DNA of 64,000 nucleotides from an uncultured Desulfobacterales bacterium (GTDB lineage Bacteria; Desulfobacterota; Desulfobacteria; Desulfobacterales; QNYZ01): positions 11,511 through 75,510 of the forward strand of contig CAZNZW010000004.1 in NCBI GenBank assembly GCA_964577615.1, given 5' to 3'. Below are positions 1 through 16,710 of the stretch, piece after piece. A model generated the notes under the pieces. It had not been told where the DNA came from. It searched no databases and saw only the letters and a program-made list of their open reading frames with translations. Position numbers and translations under genes: made by a program. Position 1 is the first letter of the stretch. Each line of letters starts with the position of its first letter.

Positions 1-1235
1 CCACCGATCCCATCGCCAATGCCGTTTTTTTCAGTATGCTGGCCAATGTGGGGGCCTATGTGGTGGGGTCGCTTTTCAGCCGGTCATCGGCCATGGAGCA
101 TACCCAGGCCGCGCTTTTCGTTGATGTGTTTCGATTTTCGCGCCAGGGACGTGATTCCCCTTTCTGGCGGGGAACGGCATCAATACCTGACCTGCGGGCC
201 CTTCTCGCCCGGTGTCTGGGGGAAGAACGGGCGGATTATGCCCTTTTTGCCTATGCGCAGAAACGGAATCTCAACTGGGACAAAAACGTCACGGCTGATG
301 CCGGGCTGGTGGAGTTTTCCGAAAAACTCCTCGCCGGCGCCATTGGATCCGCATCGGCCCGGGTGATGGTTTCTTCTGTTGTAAAGGAGGAACCGCTGGG
401 AATCGAGGAGGTCATGGGGATACTTGACGAAACCCGTCAGGTCATTGCCCACAGCCAGGAACTTGAAAAAGCGACCGACGAGCTGCGGGCGGCCAACGAG
501 CGTCTCAAAGAGCTCGACAGCCTGAAAGACGAATTTATCTCAACGGTGACCCATGAATTGCGGACGCCGTTGACCGCTGTTCGTTCCATCGCCGAAATCA
601 TTCACGACAGCCCGTCTCTCGGGGCCGAGCGGCGGGTAGAATTTGCCGGAATTATTATCAAGGAAAGTGAACGCCTTACCCGTCTGATCAATCAGGTCCT
701 CGATTTCCAGAAACTTGAGTCCGGCCGGATGGAATGGCAGATGGCAAAGGTTGACCTCTCCTCCGTGCTTCACCGGGCGGTCACCGGCATCAATCAGCTG
801 ATCCAGAACAAACATATACGGATCCATCTGGACCTCCCCGACCAGGTACCTGAAATAGACGGAGACAGGGACCGGCTGGTCCAGGTAATGATCAATCTCG
901 TGGCCAATGCGGTCAAGTTCTGCCCGGCGGATTCGGGCCGGATCGATATTTCACTCGTGGTCAAGCCAGCGGTTGTTCAGATCAATGTCAGGGACAACGG
1001 TTCCGGCATCACCTCTGATGAACAGAAGATCATCTTTGAAAGATTCAGACAGATCGCCGCCTCCGGCAAGGGCCGTCCCTCGGGCAGCGGGCTGGGGCTG
1101 TCGATCACCAAACATATCGTTGAATACCACGGGGGAGATATCTGGGTACAAAGCCGGCGCAATGAAGGGACGGTTTTCTCTTTTACGCTGCCGATTCACC
1201 GGCCGGACCACCACGGGGATCGAAACCGACCGTAA
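1..1235 (+). CDS. Sensor histidine kinase, C-terminal part (5' end is upstream of the window)
   Basis: The frame of ORF 36..1235 stays open back to the window edge. H-box EFISTVTHELRTPLTAV, N-box MINLVANAVKF, G1 VRDNGSGI and G2 GSGLGLSI indicate HisKA + HATPase_c. Confidence 0.9.
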   Translation, partial: TDPIANAVFFSMLANVGAYVVGSLFSRSSAMEHTQAALFVDVFRFSRQGRDSPFWRGTASIPDLRALLARCLGEERADYALFAYAQKRNLNWDKNVTADAGLVEFSEKLLAGAIGSASARVMVSSVVKEEPLGIEEVMGILDETRQVIAHSQELEKATDELRAANERLKELDSLKDEFISTVTHELRTPLTAVRSIAEIIHDSPSLGAERRVEFAGIIIKESERLTRLINQVLDFQKLESGRMEWQMAKVDLSSVLHRAVTGINQLIQNKHIRIHLDLPDQVPEIDGDRDRLVQVMINLVANAVKFCPADSGRIDISLVVKPAVVQINVRDNGSGITSDEQKIIFERFRQIAASGKGRPSGSGLGLSITKHIVEYHGGDIWVQSRRNEGTVFSFTLPIHRPDHHGDRNRP

Positions 1236-1310
1236 CTGCGCCATGCCTGTCCGCCCCGGGCCTGTCAGGTAAACCAATATCCTCAACGCCGGGCTCCGTT
1301 CCGTATCCCA

Positions 1311-3485
1311 TCAGTATTTCAACCGTGCCAGGTAGGTTTTCTGGGAGGCTTCCCTGGCGTCCTTGAGGGTGTAAATCCCCATCTCGAACAATAGCGGAAT
1401 AAGTTTTAAAAAAATATTCGCCGTGGCAATGGTGTCTCCCATCGCCGTATGGCGTCCCTGCACTTTCACGCCCATCCGTCTGGCAATATCCTCCAGCCCA
1501 TGGCCGCTGAGAGACGGATGCACCACGGCGGAGAGCAGAAGCGTATCCAGCACCGGATTGACAAATTTCAGGCCGGTATACCGTTCATTTATCTGCAGCA
1601 GGCGCATATCAAAGGCCGCATTGTGGGCCACCAGGACGGTTTCGTCAGCGAAATCGTAAAACCGGGGCAACACCTCTTCGATCGACGGCTGACCGGCCAC
1701 CATGTCGTCGGTAATCCCATGAAATTTTGTCGATGCGGCCGGAACCGCCCGGCCGGGATTGACCAGCTGATCGAATGGCTCGTCCGGAAGCAGACGGGCA
1801 TTGACAATGCGGACGGCGCCGATGGAGACAATCCGGTCCCCCCCATTGATATCCAGTCCCGTCGTTTCCATGTCAAACACCGTATAGGTCAGATCATCCA
1901 GGCGGCGGCTGTCGATCCGGTCATCCTGCCCCAGCTGATGAAAAAGATCAAAATCAAAAAATTCAGGCCGGCTTTCGGGGAGAATCGCCGCGCTCCTCTG
2001 CCGGAGCGGTTCGGAAGCGGTGTGCGCCGGCATAAAAATCCGGATATGCGGCCGGCTGCCGTCCGTTTTACCCGAATAGGCACCAATGTCCATGTGATGA
2101 TGACCGAGGATTTCTTTCAGCGTGAATGGCAGATGTTCCTCCCCGACCCGGATCGACTGATCTTCCCATATTTTCATCTGTTCGATCTTGACCGGATCGC
2201 CCGCCCAGACCATGTCGAGAACGATAAATCGCCCCGATTTTTTTAAAGACAGGGAAAGGCGGGATTGACCGCTGAAACGGTGCAGCCGGGCCAGGATAAA
2301 AACGGCTGCCAGGGTCATCGAATAGGTGTCGACCCGTACCCATCCACACGATTCATCCGTATCGCAGGTCAGCTGGAAACCGGCTATGCCCGCTGCTTTC
2401 TGAATAATCAGGTCGATCAGGTCCAGATCTTTGATAAACACCAGCGGCCAGCGCGTACCCGCACAGCAGCCGGCATACGCGTCTGATGTCTCGTCCAGTA
2501 CATGGCCCAGGGTCAGGGCCTGCTCATGAATCAAGTGAAAAAGCCGTGTCTTTTGGGCGGTGGACATGTCGGGATAGTCAAGGGTTGTTTCAATGGCCGA
2601 ACGGATGCCGGTAACGGCGGAGCGTACCTGTCGGGTCAACGTCTGCCAGAGAAAACGCGTGCGGCCTTCCACCTTCAGATCGGTCGTGATATCGTAGAGT
2701 ATGAGGACAAACCCGGCAAAGGCGTTGAGGTGATCCAGAATCGGGGCCGCCTCCACCCTGAGTGTCTGTGGATCCCTGTTAAGGACAAAATAGGCAGCCA
2801 TGTCCAGCTCTTTGTCGGCCAGCCGGGATTTCATCTCAGCCACGGCGTGCTGGATCATGTGAGGATCGATGAGATCATGAATCCATCGGCCGAGGCCGAC
2901 GATTTGATACGACCGCTGTTGACGGTCACCATCGCCACGGCGATTATTGCGGTTGGCGGCGAGAAAAAGTTTGGCGTGCTTGTTGTAGAGGAGAATTTTT
3001 CCGGCCGCATTGCAGATGACCACGCCCTCGGGCAATTCCGCCATGAAAGCCGCCAGAATATTTTTCTGGGTTTCCGATTCGGATCGCGCTTCGGTGATCC
3101 GGGCTTCGATGTCGGCCTGTTCCGATTCGATCTGCTCGGCCCATGCATTGATAATACCGGATAGTTTTACCAGCGTGCGGCTGCCGGCCGGCTGAATCCG
3201 GTGGGCAGGGTTCCCCGTGCGGATGAGTTCGGCCTCTTCGGCAATCCGGGCAACCGGAAAGACATACCGCTGCAGTACCCACACCAGTCCCGCGCCCAGT
3301 CCGAGCATCAACGCGCCGGTACCGACCAGGTAAAAGCGCAGTCCGCCCCGCAGGGTATCCGTCAACTGCATCTGTTGCGGGGGCGGCAGAAACAGCCAGA
3401 AAACAGAAAAGATACCGCAGAAAAGAACCAGGGGAAGGAATAAAGCAAAAACAGCCAGCAGATAGAATTTATCGGTCCGATTCAT
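1311..3485 (-). CDS. Membrane sensor fused to a DEDDh 3'-5' exonuclease (2 TM, HAMP/PAS-like region, His-less kinase-like core, DnaQ/Pol III epsilon-like C-terminus)
   Basis: Two N-terminal hydrophobic helices and a PAS-like stretch (AELPEGVVICNAAGKILLYNKHA). The DHp-like stretch FLWQTLTRQVRSAVTGIRSAIE aligns to an H-box but has Arg in place of His. Exonuclease motifs: FDMETTGL, HNAAFDMRLL, HTAMGDTIATA. Confidence 0.8.
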   Translation of the reverse strand: MNRTDKFYLLAVFALFLPLVLFCGIFSVFWLFLPPPQQMQLTDTLRGGLRFYLVGTGALMLGLGAGLVWVLQRYVFPVARIAEEAELIRTGNPAHRIQPAGSRTLVKLSGIINAWAEQIESEQADIEARITEARSESETQKNILAAFMAELPEGVVICNAAGKILLYNKHAKLFLAANRNNRRGDGDRQQRSYQIVGLGRWIHDLIDPHMIQHAVAEMKSRLADKELDMAAYFVLNRDPQTLRVEAAPILDHLNAFAGFVLILYDITTDLKVEGRTRFLWQTLTRQVRSAVTGIRSAIETTLDYPDMSTAQKTRLFHLIHEQALTLGHVLDETSDAYAGCCAGTRWPLVFIKDLDLIDLIIQKAAGIAGFQLTCDTDESCGWVRVDTYSMTLAAVFILARLHRFSGQSRLSLSLKKSGRFIVLDMVWAGDPVKIEQMKIWEDQSIRVGEEHLPFTLKEILGHHHMDIGAYSGKTDGSRPHIRIFMPAHTASEPLRQRSAAILPESRPEFFDFDLFHQLGQDDRIDSRRLDDLTYTVFDMETTGLDINGGDRIVSIGAVRIVNARLLPDEPFDQLVNPGRAVPAASTKFHGITDDMVAGQPSIEEVLPRFYDFADETVLVAHNAAFDMRLLQINERYTGLKFVNPVLDTLLLSAVVHPSLSGHGLEDIARRMGVKVQGRHTAMGDTIATANIFLKLIPLLFEMGIYTLKDAREASQKTYLARLKY

Positions 3486-3856
3486 GCCGGATCGTTGAGC
3501 AGCTTTCTGACATTTTCGATGATATCCATATTGGAAAACGGTTTGATGATATAGGCGTCCGCTCCCAGGACCATCCCCTTGGCCACATCCACATCCCGTC
3601 CCTTGGCGGTTAAAAATATAATTTTAACATGCTGACATTTCGGGTCCAGGCGGATGATTTCACATACCTCATATCCATCGATGCCCGGAAGCATGATATC
3701 CAGCAGAACCAGATCAGGATTATGCTTGCCGATTATTTCCAGCGCTTCTTCGCCGCTGCCGGCCACCAGTACGGTGTATCCGTTTTGTTCCATTAAAAAT
3801 TCGATGGGTACAACAATATTCGGTTCATCATCAACAATCAGAATCGTTTTGGGCAT
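3482..3856 (-). CDS. Stand-alone CheY-like response-regulator receiver
   Basis: ILIVDDEP, LVLLDIMLPGIDG, IIFLTAKG and IIKPF receiver motifs, with no output domain. Its stop overlaps the start of the downstream sensor-exonuclease (ATGA). Confidence 0.9.
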   Translation of the reverse strand: MPKTILIVDDEPNIVVPIEFLMEQNGYTVLVAGSGEEALEIIGKHNPDLVLLDIMLPGIDGYEVCEIIRLDPKCQHVKIIFLTAKGRDVDVAKGMVLGADAYIIKPFSNMDIIENVRKLLNDPA

Positions 3857-3912
3857 GACAGGCGTCCTTACCGCTGGCGGAAGAGTCAGCTTGTGAGAAA
3901 AGTCGGACGGGG

Positions 3913-3940
3913 ATTATGGTTCTCTCTCCCCTCTTTACAA
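3913..3940 (-). promoter_or_regulatory. Candidate sigma70-type promoter of the receiver / sensor-exonuclease operon
   Basis: On the minus strand: TTGTAA (3940-3935), 16-nt spacer, CATAAT (3918-3913), about 55 nt upstream of the ATG at 3856. The -35 lies inside one arm of the palindrome at 3931..3979. Confidence 0.3.
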
Positions 3941-3979
3941 AAAAGGTATTTTCTCCTTTTTACCATATTTTGTAAAGAG
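3931..3979. repeat. 12-bp perfect inverted repeat (CTCTTTACAAAA / TTTTGTAAAGAG)
   Basis: The arms lie within 3931-3944 and 3967-3979, separated by about 24 nt. The repeat sits between the prpE-like stop and the receiver start. It could be a terminator without a U-tract or an operator. Confidence 0.5.
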
Positions 3980-4058
3980 GAAAGAGTATATTTCGCTAAT
4001 ATTTGCCTGCTTCTGACCGATTTTCGCAGTTTCCTGCCCATCTGCCTTTTTGTTGAGC

Positions 4059-5972
4059 CTAAGTATCTCCGGTCCTGGCATAGCCGATATCCCTCAGCGC
4101 GTCCTTCATTTCACCGAGAATCGTGGGATCATCGATCGTCGCAGGGACTTTGTAGGGTTGATTGTCCGCAATCTTCTGAATGGTCCCCCGCAGGATCTTT
4201 CCCGAGCGGGTTTTGGGCAGGCGGGCCACCACGGTTGCGGTTTTGAAGGAAGCGACCGGACCGATGCGGTCCCGCACGGCCTGAATCACTTCTTTGATTA
4301 TTTCGGTCTTATCGCGGCTGACCCCGGCATTCAGGACGAGAAAACCAACCGGGATCTGGCCCTTGAGCTGATCCGCCACGCCAAGAACGGCGCATTCGGC
4401 CACGTCGGGATGATCGGCGAGCACCTCCTCCATGGCCCCTGTAGACAGGCGATGGCCGGCGACGTTGATGATATCATCGGTTCGGGACATGACAAACACA
4501 TAGCCGTCCTCGTCAATGAAACCCGCGTCCGCAGTTTTGTAATATCCCGGGAATTCATCCAGATACGACTCTATATATCGCGCGTCGTTGTGCCACAACG
4601 TCGGCAGACTGCCCGGCGGCAGCGGCAGCTTGACGGTCAGCGCGCCAATCTCGCCAGCCGGTACGGGGTGGTTGTCCGTATCAACCACCTGAACATTCCA
4701 GCCGGGCGCCGGCTTCGTTGGTGAGCCTTCCTTGACCGGATATGGATGCAGCCCCATGCAGTTGGCACAGATGGCCCATCCGGTTTCCGTCTGCCACCAG
4801 TGATCGATGACCGGTACGTTCAGGGCGTTTTCCGCCCAGTGCAGGGTATCCGGATCCAGGCGCTCACCGGCGAGAAAAAGGGTTTCGAATCCGGATAGGT
4901 CGTATTGCCGCATCCGCTCGGCCCGGGGATCCTCGCGCTTGATGGCGCGAAACGCCGTCGGGGCCGTAAAAAGACATTTGACCTTATGATCGGCAATCAC
5001 CCGCCAGAAGACGCCGGCATCCGGCGTGCCCACCGGTTTACCCTCAAAGAGGATTGTGGTGCATCCCCTGAAAAGGGGGCCATAGACAATGTACGAATGC
5101 CCGACAACCCAGCCGACGTCAGAGGCGGCCCAGTAAACATCCCCGGCATCCACATTGTAAATATTTTTCATCGTCCAGTTCAGGGCGACCACATGGCCGC
5201 CATTGTCCCGGACTACGCCTTTGGGTTCACCCGTGGTTCCCGACGTGTAGAGGATATAGAGCGGATCCGTGGCCGCCACCGGTACACAGTCATGGGGCCG
5301 GGCCGCGGCCATGGCCGTCTGCCAGTCCACATCCCGGCCGGCATTCATGTCAGCCGCCTGCTGGGGCCGCTGATAAATCACGCATTTACCGGGCCGGGCA
5401 TCGGCGGTGGACATGTCGATGGCCTCATCGAGAAGCGGTTTATAGGGGATCACACGGGTCACCTCAATGCCACAGGAGGCAGACACAATGACTTTTGGCT
5501 TGGCGTCGTTGATCCGGGTGGCCAGCTCATTGGCGGCAAACCCTCCGAAAACAACGGAATGCACGGCACCCAGACGGGCACAGGCCAGCATGGCGATGGC
5601 GGCCTGGGGAATCATGGGCATGTAGATCAGCACCCGATCCCCTTTTTGAACGCCCAGATCAGCCAGAACGCCGGCAAAACGAGCCGTTTCGTCCCGCAAT
5701 TCTGAAAACGTATAGGTCTTGACGGTATGGGTTACGGGACTGTCATAAATCAGTGCCGCCTGGCCGCCCCGGCCGCTATCAACATGTCTGTCAAGCGCAT
5801 TATAACATGTATTTAGCTCACCACCTGTGAACCATCTATAGAAGGGTTTGTGGGTATCATCCAGCACCTTGTCCCATTTTTTATACCAGTGGATACTCTC
5901 GGCGGCTTCCCCCCAGAAGCCGTCGGGATCCCTGATGGATCGTTCAAAGGCGATTTCATAAGGGTTGGCCAT
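4059..5972 (-). CDS. prpE: Propionate--CoA ligase-like acyl-CoA synthetase (PrpE/Acs family)
   Basis: The start is set at MANPYEIAFERSIRDPDGFWGEAA (ATG 5972, SD AAGGAGGG upstream). FYRWFTGGELNTCYNALDRHV, YTSGTTGEPKG, DHWWQTETG and LPKTRSGKILR motifs are present. The N-terminal pattern resembles PrpE more than Acs. Confidence 0.82.
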   Translation of the reverse strand: MANPYEIAFERSIRDPDGFWGEAAESIHWYKKWDKVLDDTHKPFYRWFTGGELNTCYNALDRHVDSGRGGQAALIYDSPVTHTVKTYTFSELRDETARFAGVLADLGVQKGDRVLIYMPMIPQAAIAMLACARLGAVHSVVFGGFAANELATRINDAKPKVIVSASCGIEVTRVIPYKPLLDEAIDMSTADARPGKCVIYQRPQQAADMNAGRDVDWQTAMAAARPHDCVPVAATDPLYILYTSGTTGEPKGVVRDNGGHVVALNWTMKNIYNVDAGDVYWAASDVGWVVGHSYIVYGPLFRGCTTILFEGKPVGTPDAGVFWRVIADHKVKCLFTAPTAFRAIKREDPRAERMRQYDLSGFETLFLAGERLDPDTLHWAENALNVPVIDHWWQTETGWAICANCMGLHPYPVKEGSPTKPAPGWNVQVVDTDNHPVPAGEIGALTVKLPLPPGSLPTLWHNDARYIESYLDEFPGYYKTADAGFIDEDGYVFVMSRTDDIINVAGHRLSTGAMEEVLADHPDVAECAVLGVADQLKGQIPVGFLVLNAGVSRDKTEIIKEVIQAVRDRIGPVASFKTATVVARLPKTRSGKILRGTIQKIADNQPYKVPATIDDPTILGEMKDALRDIGYARTGDT

Positions 5973-6164
5973 TTTTCCCTCCTTATTTCCTGCTGTCAGC
6001 TGCGTTAAAGGTTTGATGGCGGTTTTTCCCCGGGAATAAGGGCTTTCGGATATCGGATGGCGGTCTCGACGATTATCGCCTGCGCGATATCCAGCGATCA
6101 GCGCCCGCAACAGCATACCGCCGGGCGTATCCTCCCCCATTATCCGAAAGCCGGGGCAAACCGG

Positions 6165-8198
<2,034 letters not shown>

Positions 8199-8341
8199 GA
8201 GCTCCCCTCCTCATTTCTGTGTAGATGTTGGTGATTGTCCGATTCGGCGTATCTCGTACCGAATTTTCCAGATACTGCCCGGTGCGAAAACCGCTCTCTG
8301 CGGCATGATACAAACTTTGAATACAATTTATTATTTTATCG

Positions 8342-8371
8342 AGTATAAATTATTTACTGCCCGCATGTCAA
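8342..8371 (-). promoter_or_regulatory. Candidate sigma70-type promoter of acs
   Basis: On the minus strand: TTGACA (8371-8366), 18-nt spacer, TATACT (8347-8342), about 140 nt upstream of the acs ATG. Confidence 0.4.
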
Positions 8372-8438
8372 GAAAATTCTCGTTCATAACGTCTGCCCGC
8401 CCGGATATTTCCCATGCAACAAGCCGCCTTGCAAGGCC

Positions 8439-8984
8439 TCAGCGTTTTGCCTTTTTGATAATGGCCACATCCTCCTCATTGATGACCCCGTCATGATTTA
8501 TATCGGCGGAAAAAGGCGCTTCATTAATCGGAAAAAACAGACCGGCAACCAGATTTCCCGCTTTTTCTTTGAAAAAAGGAAATTGCAGAACCGGCTTTGT
8601 ATTGCCGTAGCGCATATTAATAGTGACAGAGCCTTCTCCGCTGGATTTAAAAATCGGATAGGATTTTCGGACATCATCAATACCCAGCTTTGTCTTTATG
8701 GCCCAGACCTTATAATAATAAAACAATTCTTCGGGACGCCTTTTCCGGTATCGGGCAATCAGCGCGGGCCAGGTGGCGGGAGGGTGACCATTCTCCAATA
8801 TTGTTTTAAGAATATATCGGGTCTGGTTGACTGCCCGCTTGTCCGATATGCTGATCGCCATACGATTCAGTTGAATCAGAATTTCATCAAAAAAACTGGT
8901 CCGATAGTGCCGGGAAAGCAGGAATACAGTACCGTAAACAATTGTTGACAGGAGGATTAAGGTAATCGCGATTCTTTTGGGCAT
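8439..8984 (-). CDS. Hypothetical membrane-anchored protein with a C-terminal EF-hand/dockerin-like Ca-binding loop
   Basis: N-terminal hydrophobic helix (ITLILLSTIVYGTVFLL) and C-terminal DINHDGVINEEDV (D-x-N-x-D-G-x-I-x-x-x-D pattern). The codon usage is visibly more AT-rich than in the neighbouring genes. Confidence 0.55.
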   Translation of the reverse strand: MPKRIAITLILLSTIVYGTVFLLSRHYRTSFFDEILIQLNRMAISISDKRAVNQTRYILKTILENGHPPATWPALIARYRKRRPEELFYYYKVWAIKTKLGIDDVRKSYPIFKSSGEGSVTINMRYGNTKPVLQFPFFKEKAGNLVAGLFFPINEAPFSADINHDGVINEEDVAIIKKAKR

Positions 8985-9157
8985 ATTGTTTTACAGCGCT
9001 CTGAGGGGTTCGTAAAAAACCGAAGCTGTTCAATATCGGGTCCTGAATTATTTTAAAAACCGCTGAGACCCTTCATATTAAACATATTTTTTTATCATAC
9101 CGCAAGCCCCCAGAACAATCAAGCGTCTTCATATATAATAAAAGCATAAAATCTCTC

Positions 9158-9186
9158 TTGACATTAATATGTATTATTGAGATACA
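9158..9186 (+). promoter_or_regulatory. Candidate sigma70-type promoter of the symporter operon
   Basis: TTGACA (9158-9163), 17-nt spacer, GATACA (9181-9186), in an AT-rich divergent intergenic region. Confidence 0.3.
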
Positions 9187-9251
9187 GAAAGTATGATCCC
9201 GTTTAATTTAGTGAACGGTATTTATCAATCTATTACCAAGGAGGGAAAAAG

Positions 9252-9509
9252 ATGAGTGAGAATTCAAGGGAGGAGTACTGGCGACAAAACATCAGACTGG
9301 TCATCGGATGTTTGATCGTGTGGTTTGTCGTTTCTTTCGGGTTCGGTATCATCCTGGTTCATCCGCTCAACGCCATTTCAATCGGCGGTTACAAACTCGG
9401 TTTCTGGTTCGCCCAGCAAGGTTCTATCTATGTCTTTGTGTTTCTGATTTTTTTCTATTCCAATCGGATCGGAAAACTGGATAAAAAATTCGGTGTCGAA
9501 GAAGAATAA
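9252..9509 (+). CDS. Small membrane subunit of a sodium:solute symporter (DUF4212 family)
   Basis: An 85-aa, two-helix protein (YWRQNIRLVIGCLIVWFVVSFGF...GFWFAQQGSIYVFVFLIFFY) located immediately upstream of an SSS transporter. Strong SD (AAGGAGGGAAAAAG-ATG). Confidence 0.85.
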   Translation: MSENSREEYWRQNIRLVIGCLIVWFVVSFGFGIILVHPLNAISIGGYKLGFWFAQQGSIYVFVFLIFFYSNRIGKLDKKFGVEEE

Positions 9510-9522
9510 AAGGAGATAAATC

Positions 9523-11280
9523 ATGAGCTTGAAACTTATGACATACCTTGTTGTGGGGGCGACTTTTGCCCTTTACATTTACATTGCCATTCGCTCCAAA
9601 GCCAAAAACACCGGCGATTTTTACATTGCCAGCAAAGGTGTCCATCCGATTTTCAACGGCATGGCAACCGGTGCCGACTGGATGTCGGCCGCATCGTTTA
9701 TTTCAATGGCCGGTCTGATCGCTTTTCTGGGTTACGACGCATCGGTTTATCTGATGGGCTGGACCGGTGGGTATTGTCTGCTGGCCATGCTGCTGGCCCC
9801 GTATCTCAGAAAGTTTGGAAAATATACCGTTTCCGAATTTATCGGGGAACGGTACTATTCCAATACGGCCAGAATGGTCGCCGTGATTTGCCTGATCACT
9901 GCATCGGTTACCTACGTTATCGGTCAGATGAAGGGCATCGGCGTCGTCTTTTCCCGGTCCCTGGATGTCTCTTTTCAGATGGGTATTTTTATCGGCATGA
10001 TTATCGTTTTTATCTATGCGGTGTTCGGCGGCATGAAGGGCGTCACCAATACCCAGGTTGCTCAATACTGCGTGCTGATATTTGCCTATACCGTACCGGC
10101 CATTTTTATCGCTTTTCAATTGACCGGCATGCCCATTCCCCAGCTGGGGCTTGGCAGTACCATGAGCACCGGCCACGGCATGTACCTTCTGGATAATCTC
10201 GATAAAATCCTTGTTGATCTGGGGTTTGCCAAATATACGGCCCAGAAGATGTCAACAACGAACATGCTCTTTCTGACCATGTCGCTGATGATCGGAACCG
10301 CCGGCCTGCCCCATGTGATCATGCGCTTTTTTACCGTTCCCAGCGTCAAGGATGCCCGCTCATCCGCCGGCTGGGCGCTTGTCTTTATCGCCCTGCTTTA
10401 CACCACGGCGCCGGCCGTGGGTGCCATGGCCCGCATGAATCTGATGCACACGATCCAGAAGGGAGAAGTGGGCAGTGTCGATGGAAACATCGAATATGCA
10501 AAAGTACCAGCCTGGTTCAAAAGCTGGGAAAAAACAGGCCTGCTGAAATTCGAGGATAAAAATGGAGACGGCCGGATTCAGTACTATAGTGAAAAAGGGC
10601 TGAAAAATGCCGCGTCGTACGGCTGGAAAGGCAACGAAATGGTAAAGGTTGACAGGGATATCATGGTTCTTGCCAATCCTGAAATCGCCGGACTGCCCAA
10701 CTGGGTCATCGCGCTGGTCACCGCCGGCGGGATTGCGGCGGCATTGTCCACGGCAGCGGGGCTTCTGCTGGCCATCGCCACCGCGATTTCTCATGACGTC
10801 CTCAAGGGCTGGCTGATGCCGGACATCGATGACAAAAAGGAATTGTTATATTCCCGCATAGCCATCGGCGCCGCCATTCTCGTTGCCGGCTATCTGGGTC
10901 TGAACCCACCGGGTTTTGCCGCGCAGGTTGTGGCGCTGGCCTTTGGTCTGGCGGCATCTTCCATCTTCCCGGCCATCATGATGGGAATCTTTTCAAAGCG
11001 CGTAAACAACAAGGGCGCCGTGGCCGGCATGCTCTGCGGTCTGGGCAGCACCCTGGTTTACATCTTTATTTATAAGGGCTGGTTCTTCTTTAAATCAACG
11101 GCCATGCTCCCCGATAACGTGGGGCACTGGCTGTTCGGTATCAATCCCCAGGCCTTCGGTTTTGTCGGCGCGCTGATCAACTTTCTGGTGGCATATCTGG
11201 TGTCCCGCAGCACCGAACCGCCTCCCGAGAGAATTCAGAAACTGGTTGAGGACATTCGCGTGCCCATTGCCAGCAAATAA
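9523..11280 (+). CDS. Sodium:solute symporter, VC_2705-like subfamily (likely acetate/short-chain carboxylate uptake)
   Basis: A 585-aa polytopic SSS-family sequence paired with a DUF4212 gene. The substrate is inferred only from the acs/prpE context. Confidence 0.88.
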   Translation: MSLKLMTYLVVGATFALYIYIAIRSKAKNTGDFYIASKGVHPIFNGMATGADWMSAASFISMAGLIAFLGYDASVYLMGWTGGYCLLAMLLAPYLRKFGKYTVSEFIGERYYSNTARMVAVICLITASVTYVIGQMKGIGVVFSRSLDVSFQMGIFIGMIIVFIYAVFGGMKGVTNTQVAQYCVLIFAYTVPAIFIAFQLTGMPIPQLGLGSTMSTGHGMYLLDNLDKILVDLGFAKYTAQKMSTTNMLFLTMSLMIGTAGLPHVIMRFFTVPSVKDARSSAGWALVFIALLYTTAPAVGAMARMNLMHTIQKGEVGSVDGNIEYAKVPAWFKSWEKTGLLKFEDKNGDGRIQYYSEKGLKNAASYGWKGNEMVKVDRDIMVLANPEIAGLPNWVIALVTAGGIAAALSTAAGLLLAIATAISHDVLKGWLMPDIDDKKELLYSRIAIGAAILVAGYLGLNPPGFAAQVVALAFGLAASSIFPAIMMGIFSKRVNNKGAVAGMLCGLGSTLVYIFIYKGWFFFKSTAMLPDNVGHWLFGINPQAFGFVGALINFLVAYLVSRSTEPPPERIQKLVEDIRVPIASK

Positions 11281-11304
11281 ATAACCGTTACATCCAAAAC
11301 AAGA

Positions 11305-11340
11305 AAGACGCCGCCCGGATCATGGGAGGCGTCTTTTTTG
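11305..11340 (+). terminator. Rho-independent terminator after the symporter
   Basis: Stem GACGCC (11307-11312) / GGCGTC (11328-11333) followed by TTTTTT (11334-11339). Confidence 0.7.
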
Positions 11341-11495
11341 TTATTTCCGGGTATCGATCCAGATATCGGCCCGGATTCCGGATAAATCCCCCCTCGCCTT
11401 TCCATCATTTTTATAGTACAGTATTCATATTCGCGTTAAGACAAGCTGTCCTGCGCATGAATACGACCTGGCAAGATCCCCACCGAGGAGCGGCC

Positions 11496-13826
11496 ATGAA
11501 CTCGGAAATTTTCTCATTCTTAGCTGATATGCCCCACTTTTCCCTTCTTCCCGAAGCGGAAATCAAAAAAGTGGCCGCATCGGGCACGGCCAGGCAATAT
11601 GACGCCGGAACCGTTGTGGCCGTGGCCGGACAAACCCGCATTAAAGAAATCTTTGTCGTTATCAAGGGGGCGCTGTCTCTTTTTGATGAAACCGACGGGC
11701 AGCGGAAACCGGTGGGATCAATCCGGGAAGGCGAGATTTTCGGCGGCATCACCATCGAGATGAACAACGGAATTTCCCTCAAAACAGTCGTTGCCGAACA
11801 AACCTGCGCGGGCTATGCCATCCCGGCGGATATTTTTCAGGATCTATGTGTCCACCATCGAGACTTTTTTGAATACTTCATCGAACATTTCAGTCATAAC
11901 ATCTCCGACCCCTCCCTTTTCGCCATCATAGAAACCGGCCAGACCCGATATTTTCTCACCACGCTGGCGCCATTTTCCTTTCTTCCCGAAGAAGAGATCG
12001 ACCGGGTTGTTTCGTCGCTGTCCGTTGTCAAATATGCCGAAAACACGATTCTCTTTGTACAGCAGCATTCCCGCATCGGACATCTGTATATTCTCCAAAA
12101 GGGTGCAGCCGAGCGCTATTACGAAACCCGAAAAGAAAAAACCATGCGGGGGATCCTGAGCGAAGGCGACCTGTTCGGCGGCATTTCCATTCTGCACAAC
12201 GACGGTGTGGCGGTTCGCAGTTTTCGGGTCACCGAGCCCTCGATATTTTATCTCCTGCCCAAAGCCGATTTTCTCGCGCTATGTGAAAACTATCCGGTTT
12301 TTATAGAATATTTTACCGATATTTTCGGCAAGCGGATGCTGGAAAAATCCTACGCCGCCCTTATCGCCAAAACAACACACCCGCCGGAGATGGAGAACCA
12401 GTTTTTCAACCAGCCCATCTCGTCCATCTGCACGATGGAGCCGATATTCGGAGATACCGGCATGTCGATTCAGGCGGCGGCCGGCGTCATGCAGCGGCAG
12501 CAGATCAGCGCGCTTTTTCTGAAATCACCCGGCGGCGACTGTGCGGGGATCGTGACGGAAAGGGACCTGGCGCGGCGGGTGGTCGCGCCGGGCCACGCCA
12601 TCACGGGGCCGGTATCTGAAATCATGTCCTCCCCGGTGATTACCTTTCCCATTGATGCACCGGTTTTTGAAGCCTGCATGGCCATGATGCAGCAGAACAT
12701 CCGGCACCTGGCCATCCGGGACACCCAGAATGAGGTGGTGGGCATTCTTTCCAATCGGGATATTTTAAAAAACCGCGGCCAGTCTCCGCTTTTTCTGATC
12801 CGGGAAACCGGTGACGCCGACGACATGACCAAACTCATTGAAAAACAGCACCGGCTGCCGGCAGTACTGCAGGAACTGGTCTCCAGTGGTGCCCATTCCA
12901 AAAACCTGACCCGGTTTATTTCAACTTTTTCCGATGTTATTTTAGATAAAATCATCGGGTTTACCCTCAACGAACTGGGGCCGCCGCCCGCCCAGTTTGT
13001 TTTCATGATCCTGGGCAGCGACGGCCGGTTCGAGCAGACCCTGAAAACCGACCAGGACAACGCCATTATTTACGAAGATGTCCCGTCGGATGCACAGGAA
13101 AGCGTCAATGCGTATTTTCTCCGCTTTGGCGAAACGGCCTGCGCTCTATTGGATCAGGCCGGATATACGTTCTGCACGGGGAACATCATGGCGCAAAATC
13201 CGGAATGGTGTCTGTCTCTGTCACAGTGGCAGGCCAAATTTTCCAGATGGATTCATGCCGCCGGCCCGGAGGATCTGCTGCATGCCAGCATCTTTTTCGA
13301 TTTTCGATGCGGATATGGCGACTGCGCTCTCATCGACCGGTTGCGGACATTTTTATTTGATTCATTGGAAAAAAGGCGGGGATTCTTTACTTACATGGCT
13401 GAAAATGCGCTCAGGGCCCGCCCGCCCCTGGGATTCTTTCGCAATTTCGTGGTTGAACCGAAGGGCAAACACCGCAGCAAATTCGACATCAAAAAGGCCA
13501 TGCTGCCCATCGTCGACCTGGCCCGGGTCTATGCCCTGAAAAACAAAGTCGAAACCACCAATACACTGGAGCGGCTGTACGACCTGAAACTTAAAAATGT
13601 GTTCACCCTCAGTCAATTCGATGAACTTGAAAAGGCGTACAGCTTTCTGATGCAGCTGCGTCTGGTCCGACAGATTACCGCCATCCGCGATGAAGGCCAG
13701 CCGCCGGACAATTATATTAATCCCAAAAAACTGACCCAGATCGAACAGAAAATGCTCAAGGAAATTTTCAGGCGGATCGAGTCGTTTCAGTCCAAAATGG
13801 AGGTTGACTTCACCGGTACCATTTAA
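11496..13826 (+). CDS. Signal-transduction protein: 2x cNMP-binding + CBS pair + DUF294 (Pol-beta-type) nucleotidyltransferase + DUF294_C
   Basis: The start is set at MNSEIF (GAGGAG SD 5 nt upstream). Two cNMP-binding-like regions, CBS-like stretches (VSEIMSSPVITFPIDAPVFEACMAMMQQNIRHLAI) and the NTase motif FVFMILGSDGRFEQTLKTDQDNAII are present. Confidence 0.85.
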   Translation: MNSEIFSFLADMPHFSLLPEAEIKKVAASGTARQYDAGTVVAVAGQTRIKEIFVVIKGALSLFDETDGQRKPVGSIREGEIFGGITIEMNNGISLKTVVAEQTCAGYAIPADIFQDLCVHHRDFFEYFIEHFSHNISDPSLFAIIETGQTRYFLTTLAPFSFLPEEEIDRVVSSLSVVKYAENTILFVQQHSRIGHLYILQKGAAERYYETRKEKTMRGILSEGDLFGGISILHNDGVAVRSFRVTEPSIFYLLPKADFLALCENYPVFIEYFTDIFGKRMLEKSYAALIAKTTHPPEMENQFFNQPISSICTMEPIFGDTGMSIQAAAGVMQRQQISALFLKSPGGDCAGIVTERDLARRVVAPGHAITGPVSEIMSSPVITFPIDAPVFEACMAMMQQNIRHLAIRDTQNEVVGILSNRDILKNRGQSPLFLIRETGDADDMTKLIEKQHRLPAVLQELVSSGAHSKNLTRFISTFSDVILDKIIGFTLNELGPPPAQFVFMILGSDGRFEQTLKTDQDNAIIYEDVPSDAQESVNAYFLRFGETACALLDQAGYTFCTGNIMAQNPEWCLSLSQWQAKFSRWIHAAGPEDLLHASIFFDFRCGYGDCALIDRLRTFLFDSLEKRRGFFTYMAENALRARPPLGFFRNFVVEPKGKHRSKFDIKKAMLPIVDLARVYALKNKVETTNTLERLYDLKLKNVFTLSQFDELEKAYSFLMQLRLVRQITAIRDEGQPPDNYINPKKLTQIEQKMLKEIFRRIESFQSKMEVDFTGTI

Positions 13827-13965
13827 CTAATGCACGGGCGTATAATATACTTTTACAACATATTAGATATACTTTCCTATTGTATTTGTTTAACTTATGC
13901 TTTGCCCTGTCTCACCCGCAAAAGACGACGCCGGGGATATTCGCCAATACATCTGACAGACGGAT

Positions 13966-15114
13966 TTATACCGGCTTTTTTCTCTTCCCATATCCCATCA
14001 GGCCGTCTCCCCGTAAAAACAGGGGATTGAATCCCGGGGCATGATGAATCCCCCACCGCACCAGATCGTGAAACCAGCCGGCCGGTTTGTTGAACGGACA
14101 GACCCGGATGCAATTGGCGCAGTCGGTACCATTTTTCGCCCAGAATGACAGACAGGTCTCGGCATTGATATGCCACGCCCGTACCCCTTCCCGGTTGGAA
14201 ATGTTGTGGATTTTTTCAGAAGGCCCGCCATGCATGATGCTCTGGCTGGGGCATTTCCGGGCGCATTTCTTACAGATCCGGCAGAATTCCCAGACACCAA
14301 ACGAAATCGGCCGGTCCGGCCGCAGGGGCAGATCGGTCAGGACTTTGGCCAGCCGAATCCGGGGGCCGAAGGCCGGGGTCACCAGCAGGCCGTTTCGGGC
14401 CATTTCCCCCAGGCCGGCATCAATGGCAATGGGAATGCTGCAGGCCGTATCGTTGCCACAGGGGATCGCCTGATACCCCAGCCCCCGGATATATTGCGCC
14501 AGCAGGCCGGCCGTGAAGGCCATTTTGGAATATCCCGTCCCGGTGGCCGCCGAAGCGGCTGCCGACGGCGACGTCCGGAGGGTTGGATAATCCATCTCCA
14601 CGGCAAGGGCAATGGCGGTTCGAAATGTGTCGGGGATGACGTTTTCCGCCGGCTTTCCCCCTTCCGAGGTCAGCAGATAGGCCGGGTCATAGAGCCAGCG
14701 CCGGTCCAGGTCACAGATTCCCACCAGCGAGGCCCCGAACAGCCGGGCCGCCTGTTTCACCGGTCCGGCCATGCGCCGGGCCACATCGGCCGATATTTTC
14801 AGGCCGGCCGGTACCCGGGGAAAACTGAATTTGCCGCTCCACTGCCAGCCGTACAACCCCATGCGGCCGCCGCGCACGCCCTGGGCAAACTCCCCTTCCA
14901 CCCGCCAGGACGCATTGGTCAGCGCCATGTCGGCCAGCCGATACCCGGGCCGGTCTCCGGGCATCACCGGCGCACGATAAAACCGGTCTCCCAGTTCCGC
15001 CAGGGCCGGGTCCCACCAGGGCCGCTTAAACATCTCGTTTTTCTGGTCAAAAGGCGTGATCCGGCCGACCACATACCGGCTGGCGCCCCGGTCCACATAG
15101 GAAAACGTTTTCAT
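13966..15114 (-). CDS. Reductive-dehalogenase-family (RdhA-like) corrinoid/Fe-S protein, cytoplasmic type
   Basis: FGASLVGICDLDRRWLYD, GYSKMAFTAGLLAQYIRGLGYQA, and GNDTACSIPIAIDAGLGEMARNGLLVTPAFGPRIRLAKV. Fe-S motifs CRICKKCARKCP and C-x10-CANCIRVCP. There is no twin-arginine signal. At 382 aa it is short for the family. Confidence 0.72.
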   Translation of the reverse strand: MKTFSYVDRGASRYVVGRITPFDQKNEMFKRPWWDPALAELGDRFYRAPVMPGDRPGYRLADMALTNASWRVEGEFAQGVRGGRMGLYGWQWSGKFSFPRVPAGLKISADVARRMAGPVKQAARLFGASLVGICDLDRRWLYDPAYLLTSEGGKPAENVIPDTFRTAIALAVEMDYPTLRTSPSAAASAATGTGYSKMAFTAGLLAQYIRGLGYQAIPCGNDTACSIPIAIDAGLGEMARNGLLVTPAFGPRIRLAKVLTDLPLRPDRPISFGVWEFCRICKKCARKCPSQSIMHGGPSEKIHNISNREGVRAWHINAETCLSFWAKNGTDCANCIRVCPFNKPAGWFHDLVRWGIHHAPGFNPLFLRGDGLMGYGKRKKPV

Positions 15115-15192
15115 CGTCCCGCTTCTGTATTATTGTAAATGACTGTGATTGTGATATGGTGCCGTTTCAGTTAACATGGCCGGTGCCGCTTG

Positions 15193-15219
15193 GCAATTAA
15201 TCGGCAGATAATTAATGGC
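15193..15219. promoter_or_regulatory. Imperfect palindrome GCAATTAAT-N9-ATTAATGGC between the RdhA-like and D-LDH-like genes (candidate operator)
   Basis: The 9-bp arms match at 8 of 9 positions, centred near 15206 in the 204-bp divergent intergenic region. Confidence 0.3.
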
Positions 15220-15318
15220 TGCTGAGCGCTGAAAACAGGCGTCGCGGCGGTGACTGCCGTTAATCGACGCTGTTCAATCGACAATCGCCAATAATTTTTA
15301 CACCACCCGGAGAGCCCA

Positions 15319-16710
15319 GTGACCCACCCGCCCCTTTCATCCACCGACCTCGCCGCCCTGTCGGCCATGGTTGACGCGGATCGTTTTTCCACCGGCGACT
15401 CGGTGCTGGATCTGCATGCCAGAGACCAGTCCCATCACCGCCCCCACAGGCCGGAAGCCGTCATCTGGCCAGTCAAGACATCCGAAGTGGCCGCCATTGC
15501 CGCCTATGCCAATGCGCACGGTATTGCTGTGACCGGCTGGGGATCCGGATCCAGTCTGGAAGGCAACCCGATTCCGGTCAGGCGGGGAATTGTTCTCGAT
15601 TTTTCCCGCATGAACCGGATTCTTTCCATCCAGGCGGAAAACTTTCAGGCCGATGTGGAGCCCGGTGTCATCTACCAGGATCTTAATGCCCGTCTGCGGC
15701 ACACCGGCCTCTTTTTCCCGCCCGATCCCGGCGCCCGGGCCACCATCGGCGGCATGATCGCCAACAATGCCGGGGGCACCACCACCGTTCGGTACGGTTC
15801 CACCAAGGATTATGTACTGAAGCTATCCGTGGTGCTGGCCAATGGCGAACTTATCGACATGGGCTGCCGGGTTAAAAAAACATCTTCCGCCTATGATCTG
15901 ATCCGCCTCTTTGTGGGATCTGAAGGAACCCTGGGCATCGTTGTGCGGGCCACGATCCGGCTGGTGGGACTGCCCGCGGAATTTTCCGCGACGATTGCCA
16001 ATTTTCCATCGGTGGAAGCGGCCAGCCGGGCCGTGTCTGAACTGATCCGGGCCGGCCTGGATCCGGCCGCGCTGGAGCTTCTCGACGCCGAGTGTATTCG
16101 ACTGATCAACCGCGAAAAGCAGCTGGGCCTCAATATCTCCCCCACCCTCTTTATGGAATTTCAGGGGCCGACATTGAATCAATTATCGGAAACCATGGAG
16201 ATGGCCCAGACGATCTGCGAAGAAACCGGATGCAGCGAATTCAGAACCGGGCTGGGCCGGCAGGAACGGAACCGCCTGTTTGAGGCCCGGCATGAGCTGG
16301 GAGAAATGGTCGTCCGCAACCATCCGGACGGCCGCATCCGGGTGATGGACATGGCCGTTCCCATTGCCACCTATCCGGAAATGATCGCCGATGCCCGCCA
16401 GGCCCTGACCGCGTCGGGACTGTCCGGTTATATCTTCAGCCACGCCGGCGACGGAAATATCCATATCAACGTCATCGGCCGGAAAAACAACTCCGCTCAA
16501 TGGGCACAAGTGGATCAGCTGACCGACCAGCTGGTGCAAAAAGCCCTGGATCTGGACGGCACGGCCACCGGCGAGCATGGGGTCGGCATCGGCAAGCGCC
16601 CATTCATGAAAGCGGAACATGGCAGCAGCCTGGCCTGGATGCAGCGGATCAAGTCTCTTTTTGATCCCAACAACATCCTCAACCCCGGGAAAATTTTCCC
16701 TGCCCCATAA
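15319..16710 (+). CDS. FAD-linked oxidase, D-lactate dehydrogenase / GlcD-like
   Basis: FAD_binding_4-type N-terminus (VIWPVKTSEVAAIAAYANAHGIAVTGWGSGSSLEGN) and a C-terminal GTATGEHGVGIGKR motif. GTG start. The gene lies upstream of lutABC. Confidence 0.85.
   Translation: MTHPPLSSTDLAALSAMVDADRFSTGDSVLDLHARDQSHHRPHRPEAVIWPVKTSEVAAIAAYANAHGIAVTGWGSGSSLEGNPIPVRRGIVLDFSRMNRILSIQAENFQADVEPGVIYQDLNARLRHTGLFFPPDPGARATIGGMIANNAGGTTTVRYGSTKDYVLKLSVVLANGELIDMGCRVKKTSSAYDLIRLFVGSEGTLGIVVRATIRLVGLPAEFSATIANFPSVEAASRAVSELIRAGLDPAALELLDAECIRLINREKQLGLNISPTLFMEFQGPTLNQLSETMEMAQTICEETGCSEFRTGLGRQERNRLFEARHELGEMVVRNHPDGRIRVMDMAVPIATYPEMIADARQALTASGLSGYIFSHAGDGNIHINVIGRKNNSAQWAQVDQLTDQLVQKALDLDGTATGEHGVGIGKRPFMKAEHGSSLAWMQRIKSLFDPNNILNPGKIFPAP

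Follow-up and report, generated by a model that had tools for sequence, protein, structure and literature searches.

Can a nuclease be the output of a two-component system? The question is raised by two adjacent genes on the minus strand of a 64,000-nucleotide (nt) stretch of DNA from an uncultured Desulfobacterales bacterium, called here the window. The open reading frame (ORF) list gives a receiver of 124 amino acids (aa) at 3482-3856(-) and a protein of 724 aa at 1311-3485(-). A first-pass annotation of this DNA, made from the letters and the ORF list without database searches, had described the larger protein as a membrane-bound, kinase-like protein that lacks its phospho-accepting His and is fused to a DnaQ-type exonuclease. 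Our analysis confirmed this layout, which from N- to C-terminus comprises a transmembrane (TM) hairpin, a HAMP-like helix pair, a PAS domain, degenerate DHp and CA domains, a linker motif and a DEDDh exonuclease. With belief and doubt in roughly equal measure, we propose that the 724-aa protein, rather than being a kinase or a replication subunit, serves as the output of a two-component pathway dedicated to it.

An AlphaFold2 model of the protein (mean predicted local distance difference test score, pLDDT, 78.4) displays the same succession of parts. Helices 3-31 and 35-90 form the membrane hairpin and run into the HAMP-like helix, residues 103-150 are a long signalling helix, residues 154-265 a PAS domain, and helices 267-303 and 309-340 the DHp hairpin. 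An alpha/beta CA-like domain (residues 349-486), a linker (residues ~487-530, with pLDDT <50 only at 493-509) and the exonuclease (residues 534-723) complete the chain. Pfam matches only a part of this: RNase_T at residues 536-692 (E=4.6e-38) and otherwise PAS, below threshold. For comparison we assembled 42 close homologues and a wider set of 84 sequences from several phyla. In the close set, RNase_T was found in 42/42 proteins, PAS families in 36/42 and HisKA, weakly, in 2/42, with no match to HATPase_c (0/42) or HAMP (0/42). Standard domain scans overlook the kinase-like half entirely and the family has therefore been mis-filed among replication proteins: database names are 'DNA polymerase III subunit epsilon' or 'exonuclease domain-containing protein', the partner kinase is called 'ATP-binding protein', and the signalling nature of the gene cassette is invisible in current annotation.

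The claim that the middle region is kinase-like had been read from an alignment with the genuine histidine kinase of the window, and BLASTP recovers that similarity (E=0.012, residues 282-439). Profile searches, profile-profile comparison and structure prediction all uphold it. Against PDB sequences, a profile of the 42 homologues found the VicK-like kinase 4i5s (E=2.9e-11, residues 257-488) and WalK (1e-5), and a profile restricted to the middle region found WalK 4u7n (E=4.6e-5), with the H-box His placed opposite R285. Comparison by hhalign with the DHp and CA domains of the genuine kinases that accompany the family gave a probability of 98.6% (E=9.3e-16) over 221 columns. The top Foldseek matches of the model were full-length WalK (1.3e-21) and VicK (1e-16), followed by LOV-kinase chimeras, ThkA, HK853 and the pseudo-kinases DivL and NifL. 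Residues 268-490 thus derive from a DHp and CA kinase core. A degenerate DHp two-helix hairpin, delimited by alignments, column counts and the AlphaFold2 model, spans residues 268-345 (2451..2684(-)), and a degenerate, GHKL-like alpha/beta CA domain, recognised with hhalign and Foldseek, spans residues 346-490 (2016..2450(-)).

As first read from the letters, the phospho-accepting His of this core is replaced by Arg: R285 (nt 2631-2633(-)) stands in T-R285 opposite T-H of the kinase. None of the 42 close homologues has His in the equivalent column (R29, G4, T4, Q3, V1, N1), and in the 84 sequences it reads E55, R7, D7, Q5, G2, T2, H2 and K1. Arg is found in the Desulfobacterales clade, and Glu in most proteobacterial and Chloroflexota members, where it may act as a phosphomimic. 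His does occupy this position in two divergent members from the Desulfobacteraceae (L048 and L051), which nevertheless lack the ATP-binding boxes.

The loss of the N, G1 and G2 boxes, also reported at first pass, is borne out by the hhalign alignment as well as by the lack of HATPase_c matches. In this alignment the two Asn of the N box face hydrophobic residues, an invariant W427 lies opposite the Asp of G1, and the G2 loop (GxGxG) falls in a 10-residue deletion, so that the lid is shorter by 10 residues. The phosphatase motif of HisKA proteins (E/D-x-x-T/N) is absent as well, the sequence being R-Q-V-R-S here and E-G-S-R-A in most relatives. Other features of the core are conserved. The DHp, in which R288, A297 and E299 are retained, ranks among the better conserved segments outside the nuclease, and the CA-like domain keeps W346, P347, D424, W427, G429 and W440. 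DHp helix 1 mirrors the pattern of the partner kinase at +3, +6, +9, +10, +11 and +14 from the His, which fits a retained protein-protein surface.

At the other end of the protein, the exonuclease (DEDDh or DnaQ-type, 3'-5'; residues 531-724, 1314..1895(-)) carries all the motifs announced for it, FDMETTGL at 537-544, HNAAFDMRLL at 621-630 and HTAMGDTIATA at 679-689. These supply D538 and E540 of Exo I, D626 of Exo II and H679-x4-D684 of Exo III, a complete DEDDh set whose five catalytic residues are invariant in both the 42 close homologues and the 84 multi-phylum sequences. The fold agrees with this: the domain is modelled with a pLDDT of mostly 80-94, and Foldseek superposes it on known members, epsilon (2gui, 1j53, 2ido) and DnaQ-domain structures (8h18, 8h2f), with TM-scores of 0.83-0.87 and a root mean square deviation of 2.2-2.7 A. 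Foldseek matches of the C-terminal domain comprise PolC, DinG, epsilon and Exo X, and phmmer found the PolC exonuclease 2p1j with E=4.7e-29. Judged by its motifs, the exonuclease domain is catalytically complete and its nuclease site intact. The tail of the domain (…ARxKY; residues 716-724, 1314-1340(-)) is conserved to the last residue, with Tyr in 83/84 sequences; such conservation at the very end of a protein is unusual.

Between the CA-like domain and the exonuclease lies a short motif, R-P-E-[FY]-[FY]-D-F-D-L-F (residues 506-515, 1941..1970(-)), which is conserved more strongly than the DHp. R506, D511, F512 and F515 are identical in 84/84 sequences, and P507, D513 and L514 in 83. The AlphaFold2 pLDDT of this part is low (39 at residues 501-510 and 71 at 511-520). 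Its conservation makes the motif a good candidate for a switch element of the exonuclease; an autoinhibitory peptide and a partner-binding site are further candidate roles. Two other assignments were considered and rejected. A reading of DFDLF as a beta-clamp-binding motif (consensus QL[SD]LF) is unsupported, since the first Gln is the key residue and that position is here an invariant Asp. Mimicry of the C-terminal tail of SSB was discarded since the SSB motif requires a free C-terminus.

The N-terminal part of the protein is that of a membrane sensor. The two TM helices noted from the letters were found as hydrophobic helices at ~8-32 and 49-71, joined by a loop of ~15 residues, in a hairpin (residues 1-72, 3270..3485(-), from the sequence and AlphaFold2) that has no extracytoplasmic sensor domain. 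The stretch that follows had been called HAMP/PAS-like, and the two halves of this label fared differently. The PAS half stands, on family matches in 36/42 homologues and on the predicted fold, and the HAMP half is tentative because Pfam finds HAMP in 0/42 homologues. Residues 73-150 (3036..3269(-)) are modelled by AlphaFold2 as a helix-loop-helix followed by the long signalling helix into PAS; P77 and N92 are invariant in close homologues, and a profile gave a weak match to the TM2-HAMP region of Tsr (E=0.077). The term 'HAMP-like' reflects only a helix-loop-helix that follows TM2 and the similarity of the model to full-length WalK.

The cytoplasmic PAS domain (residues 151-267, 2685..3035(-)) is weakly matched by PAS_4 in the 724-aa protein itself (E=0.0066, 17.1 bits vs a Pfam cut-off of 23.1), and above the cut-off in the Paracoccus homologue. 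AlphaFold2 gives residues 154-265 a five-strand PAS topology. Across the 84 sequences C158, R200 and F233 are invariant, and N159, G162, Y167, N168, G197 and G199 are kept in 80-83. Being invariant or nearly so across phyla, these residues suggest a specific ligand, cofactor or partner.

What could act on such a protein? The gene directly upstream encodes the stand-alone CheY-like receiver (3482..3856(-); Pfam Response_reg 2.5e-29). It has the acidic pocket D9-D10, the Asp D53 (LLDIMLPG), T83 (FLTAKG) and K105 (IIKPF), positions that are invariant in a 22-sequence alignment, and its helix 1 is highly conserved. The closest receiver domains are those of PhoP, YycF/WalR, VicR and RR468, with DivK also among the matches (PDB sequences: PhoP 2.8e-26, YycF 2.2e-25, RR468 2.4e-22). 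The receiver itself lacks an output domain. Its TGA and the ATG of the 724-aa ORF share the ATGA at 3482-3485(-), the minus strand reading ...GATCCGGCATGAATCGG... with GGC ATG AAT at the junction, so that coordinates and sequence of this overlap, a sign of translational coupling, are as first described. Among related loci, 39 have a start codon that allows the same 4-nt overlap with the receiver and 47 allow an overlap of some length; the receiver and exonuclease genes annotated in Paracoccus denitrificans PD1222 likewise overlap by 4 nt. The intergenic region upstream of the receiver (3857..4058(-)) is probably the promoter of the receiver-exonuclease operon, because it is A+T-rich and contains two sigma-70-like matches (consensus matches only).

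We then asked how far this gene pair extends beyond the window. A scan of one genome per species returned at least 528 loci, and with relatives of the fusion in so many species genomes the view that it is an assembly artefact fails. More than 120 full-length homologues of ~720 aa are present in the protein database. An exhaustive search with a profile of the pseudo-kinase module gave 516 clusters (50% identity, E<=1e-10), most of them proteins of 700-730 aa that carry the module at the same position. Gene context was taken from the best 80 loci of the scan; together with two long metagenome contigs (L001 and L003, which carry the homologues P0008 and P0068 and have precomputed Pfam annotation) and this window they make 83 distinct loci, on which seed proteins were mapped by tblastn. 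The phyletic survey called for at first pass shows the architecture to be widespread, the best 80 loci spanning several phyla. They include Desulfobacterales, Chloroflexota and a metagenome-assembled genome (MAG) of Thermoleophilia. The cassette occurs in the betaproteobacterial Zoogloea, Dechloromonas, Azonexus, Accumulibacter, Hydrogenophaga, Rhodoferax, Sulfuritalea and Thauera, in the gammaproteobacterial Thiothrix, Colwellia, Thioalkalivibrio and a Pseudomonas, and on megaplasmids of Cupriavidus necator and several Paracoccus species.

The genes around the exonuclease recur. The receiver is directly upstream on the same strand in 77/83 loci. A genuine kinase of ~900 aa is found in the flank of 65/83; it lies upstream on the same strand in 57/83, in the order small ORF, kinase, receiver, exonuclease, and is convergent, as in this window, in 6/83. 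A DUF294 nucleotidyltransferase is in the flank of 61/83 loci, <=600 nt downstream in 40 of them, an SSF symporter in 36/83 and an acetyl-CoA synthetase in 29/83. In the precomputed Pfam annotation of the L001 and L003 loci no DNA-binding response regulator was called, and the receiver therefore needs a protein target.

In the RefSeq annotation of P. denitrificans PD1222 the cassette is a run of five consecutive, overlapping genes, PDEN_RS25395-25415: DUF294, an 81-aa hypothetical protein, a 901-aa 'ATP-binding protein' (the kinase), a response regulator and a 706-aa exonuclease protein. The same replicon carries a second, more divergent cassette in the order acs, DUF4212, SSF, DUF294, hypothetical, response regulator and 3'-5' exonuclease, with a 165-aa hypothetical protein in the kinase's place and an exonuclease protein of 659 aa. 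The P. denitrificans pair lies at 782-9643 of L087 (plasmid) and 3993-10893 of L084. Two cassette copies are also carried by the betaproteobacterial MAGs L027 and L050.

The pseudo-kinase module occurs in other settings too. Some 15 clusters of the exhaustive search are proteins of 330-390 aa that consist of PAS and pseudo-kinase without the exonuclease. Complete 340-aa proteins of this kind (P0148) are encoded at 3272-4294 of L089 and 2638-3660 of L090; the gene directly follows that of a 95-aa ArsR-type helix-turn-helix protein and is divergent from a 76-aa ORF and a long gene cut by the contig end, an arrangement like that of the transporter-like kinase elsewhere. In P0128 (811 aa, L088 2313-4748), PAS, pseudo-kinase and the first exonuclease strand (…LTELTYTV) run into DUF294 and DUF294_C. 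Because such stand-alone (P0148) and DUF294-joined (P0128) versions exist, they suggest that PAS and pseudo-kinase are a self-contained regulatory module. We considered P0128 as proof of shared regulation and dropped it: the exonuclease domain has apparently been deleted, joining neighbouring genes, and the only example, on a MAG contig of 5.6 kb, could be an artefact.

In the window itself, the genuine histidine kinase is represented by its 3' part (1..1235(+); HisKA 4.8e-17, HATPase_c 1.7e-29), convergent with the exonuclease gene. Its ORF is listed as 36-1235(+); because bases 1-35 contain no in-frame stop, it is the 3' end of a longer gene. The product shares 57% identity with the 924-aa L003 kinase over residues 521-916 of the latter, which identifies it, by homology, as the C-terminal 400 aa of a transporter-like (SLC5-type) sensor kinase of ~900-925 aa. 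In the cassette kinases the N-terminal 650 aa are membrane domains, and a small ORF for a membrane protein comes before the kinase gene; Pfam matches SSF (SLC5) weakly in the N-terminal part of the Paracoccus homologue.

On the other side of the receiver lie tandem acetyl-CoA synthetase genes (4059-6140(-) and 6165-8198(-)), identified from the ORFs and from the L001 and L003 pair with ACAS_N and AMP-binding Pfam matches. Further on are a DUF4212 small subunit (9252-9509(+)), the pair with its symporter being 88-89% identical to the DUF4212/SSF pair of L001, a sodium:solute symporter for acetate-type uptake (9523-11280(+); SSF 1.3e-47) and a protein in which Pfam finds two cNMP-binding stretches, a CBS pair, DUF294 and DUF294_C (11322..13826(+)). 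The last is predicted to be a GlnD/GlnE-like nucleotidyltransferase and the recurrent partner of the exonuclease. The same gene set surrounds the homologues on L001 and L003. The two acs paralogues are only ~34% identical to each other, and the tandem pair is kept in related Desulfobacterales contigs; the first acs ORF, 693 aa as listed, has a probable start ~56 codons later, at MANPYE near 5972. Between the second acs gene and DUF4212 lies a 181-aa ORF (8439-8984(-)) with an N-terminal hydrophobic segment and a weak dockerin-like match, in a stretch of lower G+C content (0.44 vs ~0.56). L001 has at this position a 184-aa ORF without Pfam matches.

How would these components work together? The observations at hand are the anatomy of the 724-aa protein, its loss of kinase motifs, its intact nuclease site, and the gene order and overlap with the receiver. 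On this footing, the transporter-like SLC5-type kinase would sense a transported monocarboxylate, for example acetate, and phosphorylate the 124-aa receiver. The phosphorylated receiver would bind the degenerate DHp of the membrane-anchored pseudo-kinase, much as phosphorylated DivK binds DivL, and the resulting conformational change, transmitted through the dead CA and the RPE[FY][FY]DFDLF linker, would switch the DEDDh exonuclease on or off. The PAS domain would probably contribute a second, cytoplasmic input. Docking on the DHp is the simplest model because the receiver is output-less, because its gene is tied to that of the pseudo-kinase and because no DNA-binding regulator was called in the L001 and L003 loci; although it explains the conserved gene order most parsimoniously, it seems to us evenly poised between right and wrong. 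Phosphorylation partners, docking, gating, substrate and physiological role are what we infer here, and our confidence in any particular substrate is much less than in the signalling part.

The reading extends to the metabolic neighbours. Exonuclease and DUF294 nucleotidyltransferase would act jointly, most likely with the one removing what the other adds, be it at the 3' end of a nucleotide or as a nucleotidyl group. The DUF294 enzyme, under the control of cNMP and adenine nucleotides, would thus oppose the exonuclease, and the pair would tune assimilation of acetate and related acids. In its most specific form, this would be a reversible cycle and a new class of two-component output: a DEDDh enzyme gated by the receiver through a dead kinase scaffold would remove, and a cNMP/CBS-regulated DUF294 enzyme would add, on a specific RNA 3' end or on a nucleotidylated protein such as acetyl-CoA synthetase or the symporter. 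Such a cycle would govern how much acetate, propionate and pyruvate enters central metabolism without any transcription factor. As a joint claim that includes the targets and the flux role, it is unlikely.

Several points weigh against the proposed pathway. Over 78 receiver/pseudo-kinase pairs, mutual information with average product correction (APC) showed no enrichment in the DHp, with 45 of the 300 top pairs vs 37 expected. The top pairs are scattered over all domains, and what they record is how Desulfobacterales differ from the other members; being dominated by phylogeny, co-variation was rejected as evidence either way. The residue at the His position varies across the family (E55, R7, D7, Q5 and others among the 84). 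The exonuclease is closer to PolC-type domains (104 bits) than to the short Pseudomonas form (30%, 71 bits). An Rfam scan of window positions 1-16000 for a candidate RNA substrate gave nothing at gathering thresholds. Finally, the kinase of the window is convergent and the DUF294 gene 8 kb off, and co-regulation is for these reasons weaker here than in the proteobacterial operons.

In another account, PAS and HAMP-like parts are the true sensor, the dead DHp/CA core serves only as a scaffold that dimerises the exonucleases, and the receiver, never touching the pseudo-kinase, acts elsewhere, for example on DUF294 or the symporter, or as a sink for phosphate from the kinase. Dimerisation is what DHp domains inherently do; the PAS residues invariant across phyla, with the specific ligand or partner that they suggest, the variable residue at the His position and a co-variation test without a receiver-DHp interface signal would all suit such a role. 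The position of the receiver gene does not. It is tied to the exonuclease and not to DUF294 or the symporter, being directly upstream in 77/83 loci and often overlapping, and it stays by the exonuclease when the kinase is elsewhere or convergent; nor would a mere scaffold need a DHp helix 1 whose pattern mirrors the partner kinase. We consider this account possible but unlikely. The shared helix-1 positions also admit a heterodimer of the RetS-GacS kind, in which the DHp domains of pseudo-kinase and genuine kinase pair, so that the pseudo-kinase modulates the kinase or is recruited by it to the membrane, and the receiver is simply the kinase's acceptor. Both proteins are membrane-anchored and co-encoded and their DHp sequences are homologous, with many helix-1 positions in common. 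Such pairing would leave the output-less receiver without a target, and the stand-alone and the exonuclease-fused module each occur in some loci without a flanking kinase, which makes it distinctly improbable.

The retained helix-1 pattern, with its Arg at H+3, might equally mark the degenerate DHp as a dedicated phosphatase of the phosphorylated receiver, next to an exonuclease that acts independently; many HisKA kinases dephosphorylate their receiver via the DHp without ATP hydrolysis. Phosphatase activity normally requires His or a substitute in register, however, and the E/D-x-x-T/N motif of HisKA proteins is absent, the family having E/R-G-x-R-A/S, so that we rate this explanation as low as heterodimer formation. 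Hardly credible, in turn, is an ordinary proofreading exonuclease of replication or repair with extra N-terminal domains. Its closest solved relatives are indeed the exonuclease domains of PolC, epsilon and DinG, and several database entries bear the name epsilon. The protein is nevertheless membrane-anchored, fused to a signalling module and paired with a receiver, usually also with a kinase and DUF294, and its loci are those of acetate uptake and activation, with no recurring replication or repair neighbours. Set beside these four accounts, docking of the receiver on the degenerate DHp is the reading that we prefer.

The nearest precedent in gene content is in Pseudomonas. There, acs and actP are switched on by MxtR/ErdR (= CrbS/CrbR), a two-component system of SLC5 type, and the operon PP_0354 (cNMP/CBS/DUF294)-PP_0353 (RNase_T-type exonuclease) is a direct target of this system and among the genes most dependent on it (PMC9927547; bioRxiv 10.64898/2026.09.07.749794). 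Deletion mutants of PP_0354-PP_0353 grew normally on acetate and less well on propionate and pyruvate, and the authors assigned no function to the two genes (PMC9927547; bioRxiv 10.64898/2026.09.07.749794). A DUF294 protein of P. fluorescens has been reported in the same connection (PMC5715377), and DUF294 has been grouped with the GlnD/GlnE protein nucleotidyltransferases (PMC3710099). A P. aeruginosa record shows DUF485, an acetate symporter, a cNMP/CBS protein and a 208-aa 3'-5' exonuclease in succession, the last two genes overlapping, and in a record from Vibrio a 240-aa exonuclease comes after DUF294. The exonuclease of the window is 30% identical to the P. aeruginosa protein (E=2e-18) and 24% to that of Vibrio. 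Since the long form is closer to PolC-type domains, it is only gene context that speaks for its equivalence to the short form (PP_0353/PA3232), and both this equivalence and orthology of the two forms are tentative. Both modules unite DUF294, a DEDDh exonuclease, an SLC5-type kinase and genes of acetate uptake and activation. They differ in that the Pseudomonas exonuclease is a short single-domain protein under transcriptional control via CrbR/ErdR, whereas here the exonuclease is fused to PAS and pseudo-kinase and accompanied by a receiver without output domain, an arrangement implying protein-level control.

The kinase of the cassette invites comparison with CrbS and CbrA (SLC5/STAC), for which a small membrane ORF and a kinase with an SLC5-type membrane domain have been described (PMC5715377, PMC9100948). 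The partner kinase shares with them the large N-terminal membrane domain, the weak SSF similarity, the small membrane ORF and the acetate genes. In contrast to them, Pfam detects neither STAC nor a C-terminal receiver in it and calls only HisKA and HATPase_c, and its presumed partner is a single-domain receiver and not a LuxR- or NtrC-type regulator.

For the signalling half of the 724-aa protein, the best structural and profile matches are WalK, VicK and PhoR, which have the same order of TM hairpin, HAMP-like part, PAS, DHp and CA. Unlike these, the protein lacks the His and the N, G1 and G2 boxes, its lid is shortened, it bears an additional exonuclease, and the receiver has no DNA-binding domain. 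For the proposed mode of action, the closest model is Caulobacter crescentus DivL, a His-less kinase homologue that binds phosphorylated DivK ('reverse' signalling). Both cases combine a His-less DHp/CA scaffold with a stand-alone receiver, and DivL (4q20) is among the Foldseek matches. DivL, however, has Tyr, a CA that binds nucleotide and another kinase, CckA, as output; the present family has Arg or Glu at that position, no longer has an ATP site and bears a fused nuclease. As for that nuclease, fold and DEDDh set are common to PolC, epsilon and DinG, with 31-36% identity to PolC exonuclease structures in Foldseek, but here the domain belongs to neither a polymerase nor a helicase: it is tethered to the membrane, follows the linker motif and is embedded in a signalling cassette.

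Two-component systems, the chief signalling device of bacteria, are known to act mostly through transcription factors, enzymes of cyclic-di-GMP metabolism, methylesterases and partner proteins. The first-pass annotation had remarked that a nuclease controlled by a membrane sensor is not known to have been described as an output, and our full-text literature searches agree: apart from the one on PA3232, they returned no paper on such an output or on the kinase-like exonuclease architecture. If the proposal is true, a nuclease reached through a dead kinase scaffold would be a new kind of two-component output. The cassette is present in tractable organisms, among them Paracoccus denitrificans PD1222, Cupriavidus necator, Azonexus and Colwellia, and it bears on the role of the DUF294/exonuclease operon in the acetate switch of Pseudomonas and Vibrio. 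That SLC5-type kinases, DUF294, DEDDh exonucleases and acetate genes occur together was already known; the difference lies in the wiring through a pseudo-kinase fusion and a receiver. Compared with these systems, the cassette is a widespread, unannotated two-component variant linked to the bacterial acetate switch, for which receiver-controlled gating of the exonuclease would be a reasonable mechanism.

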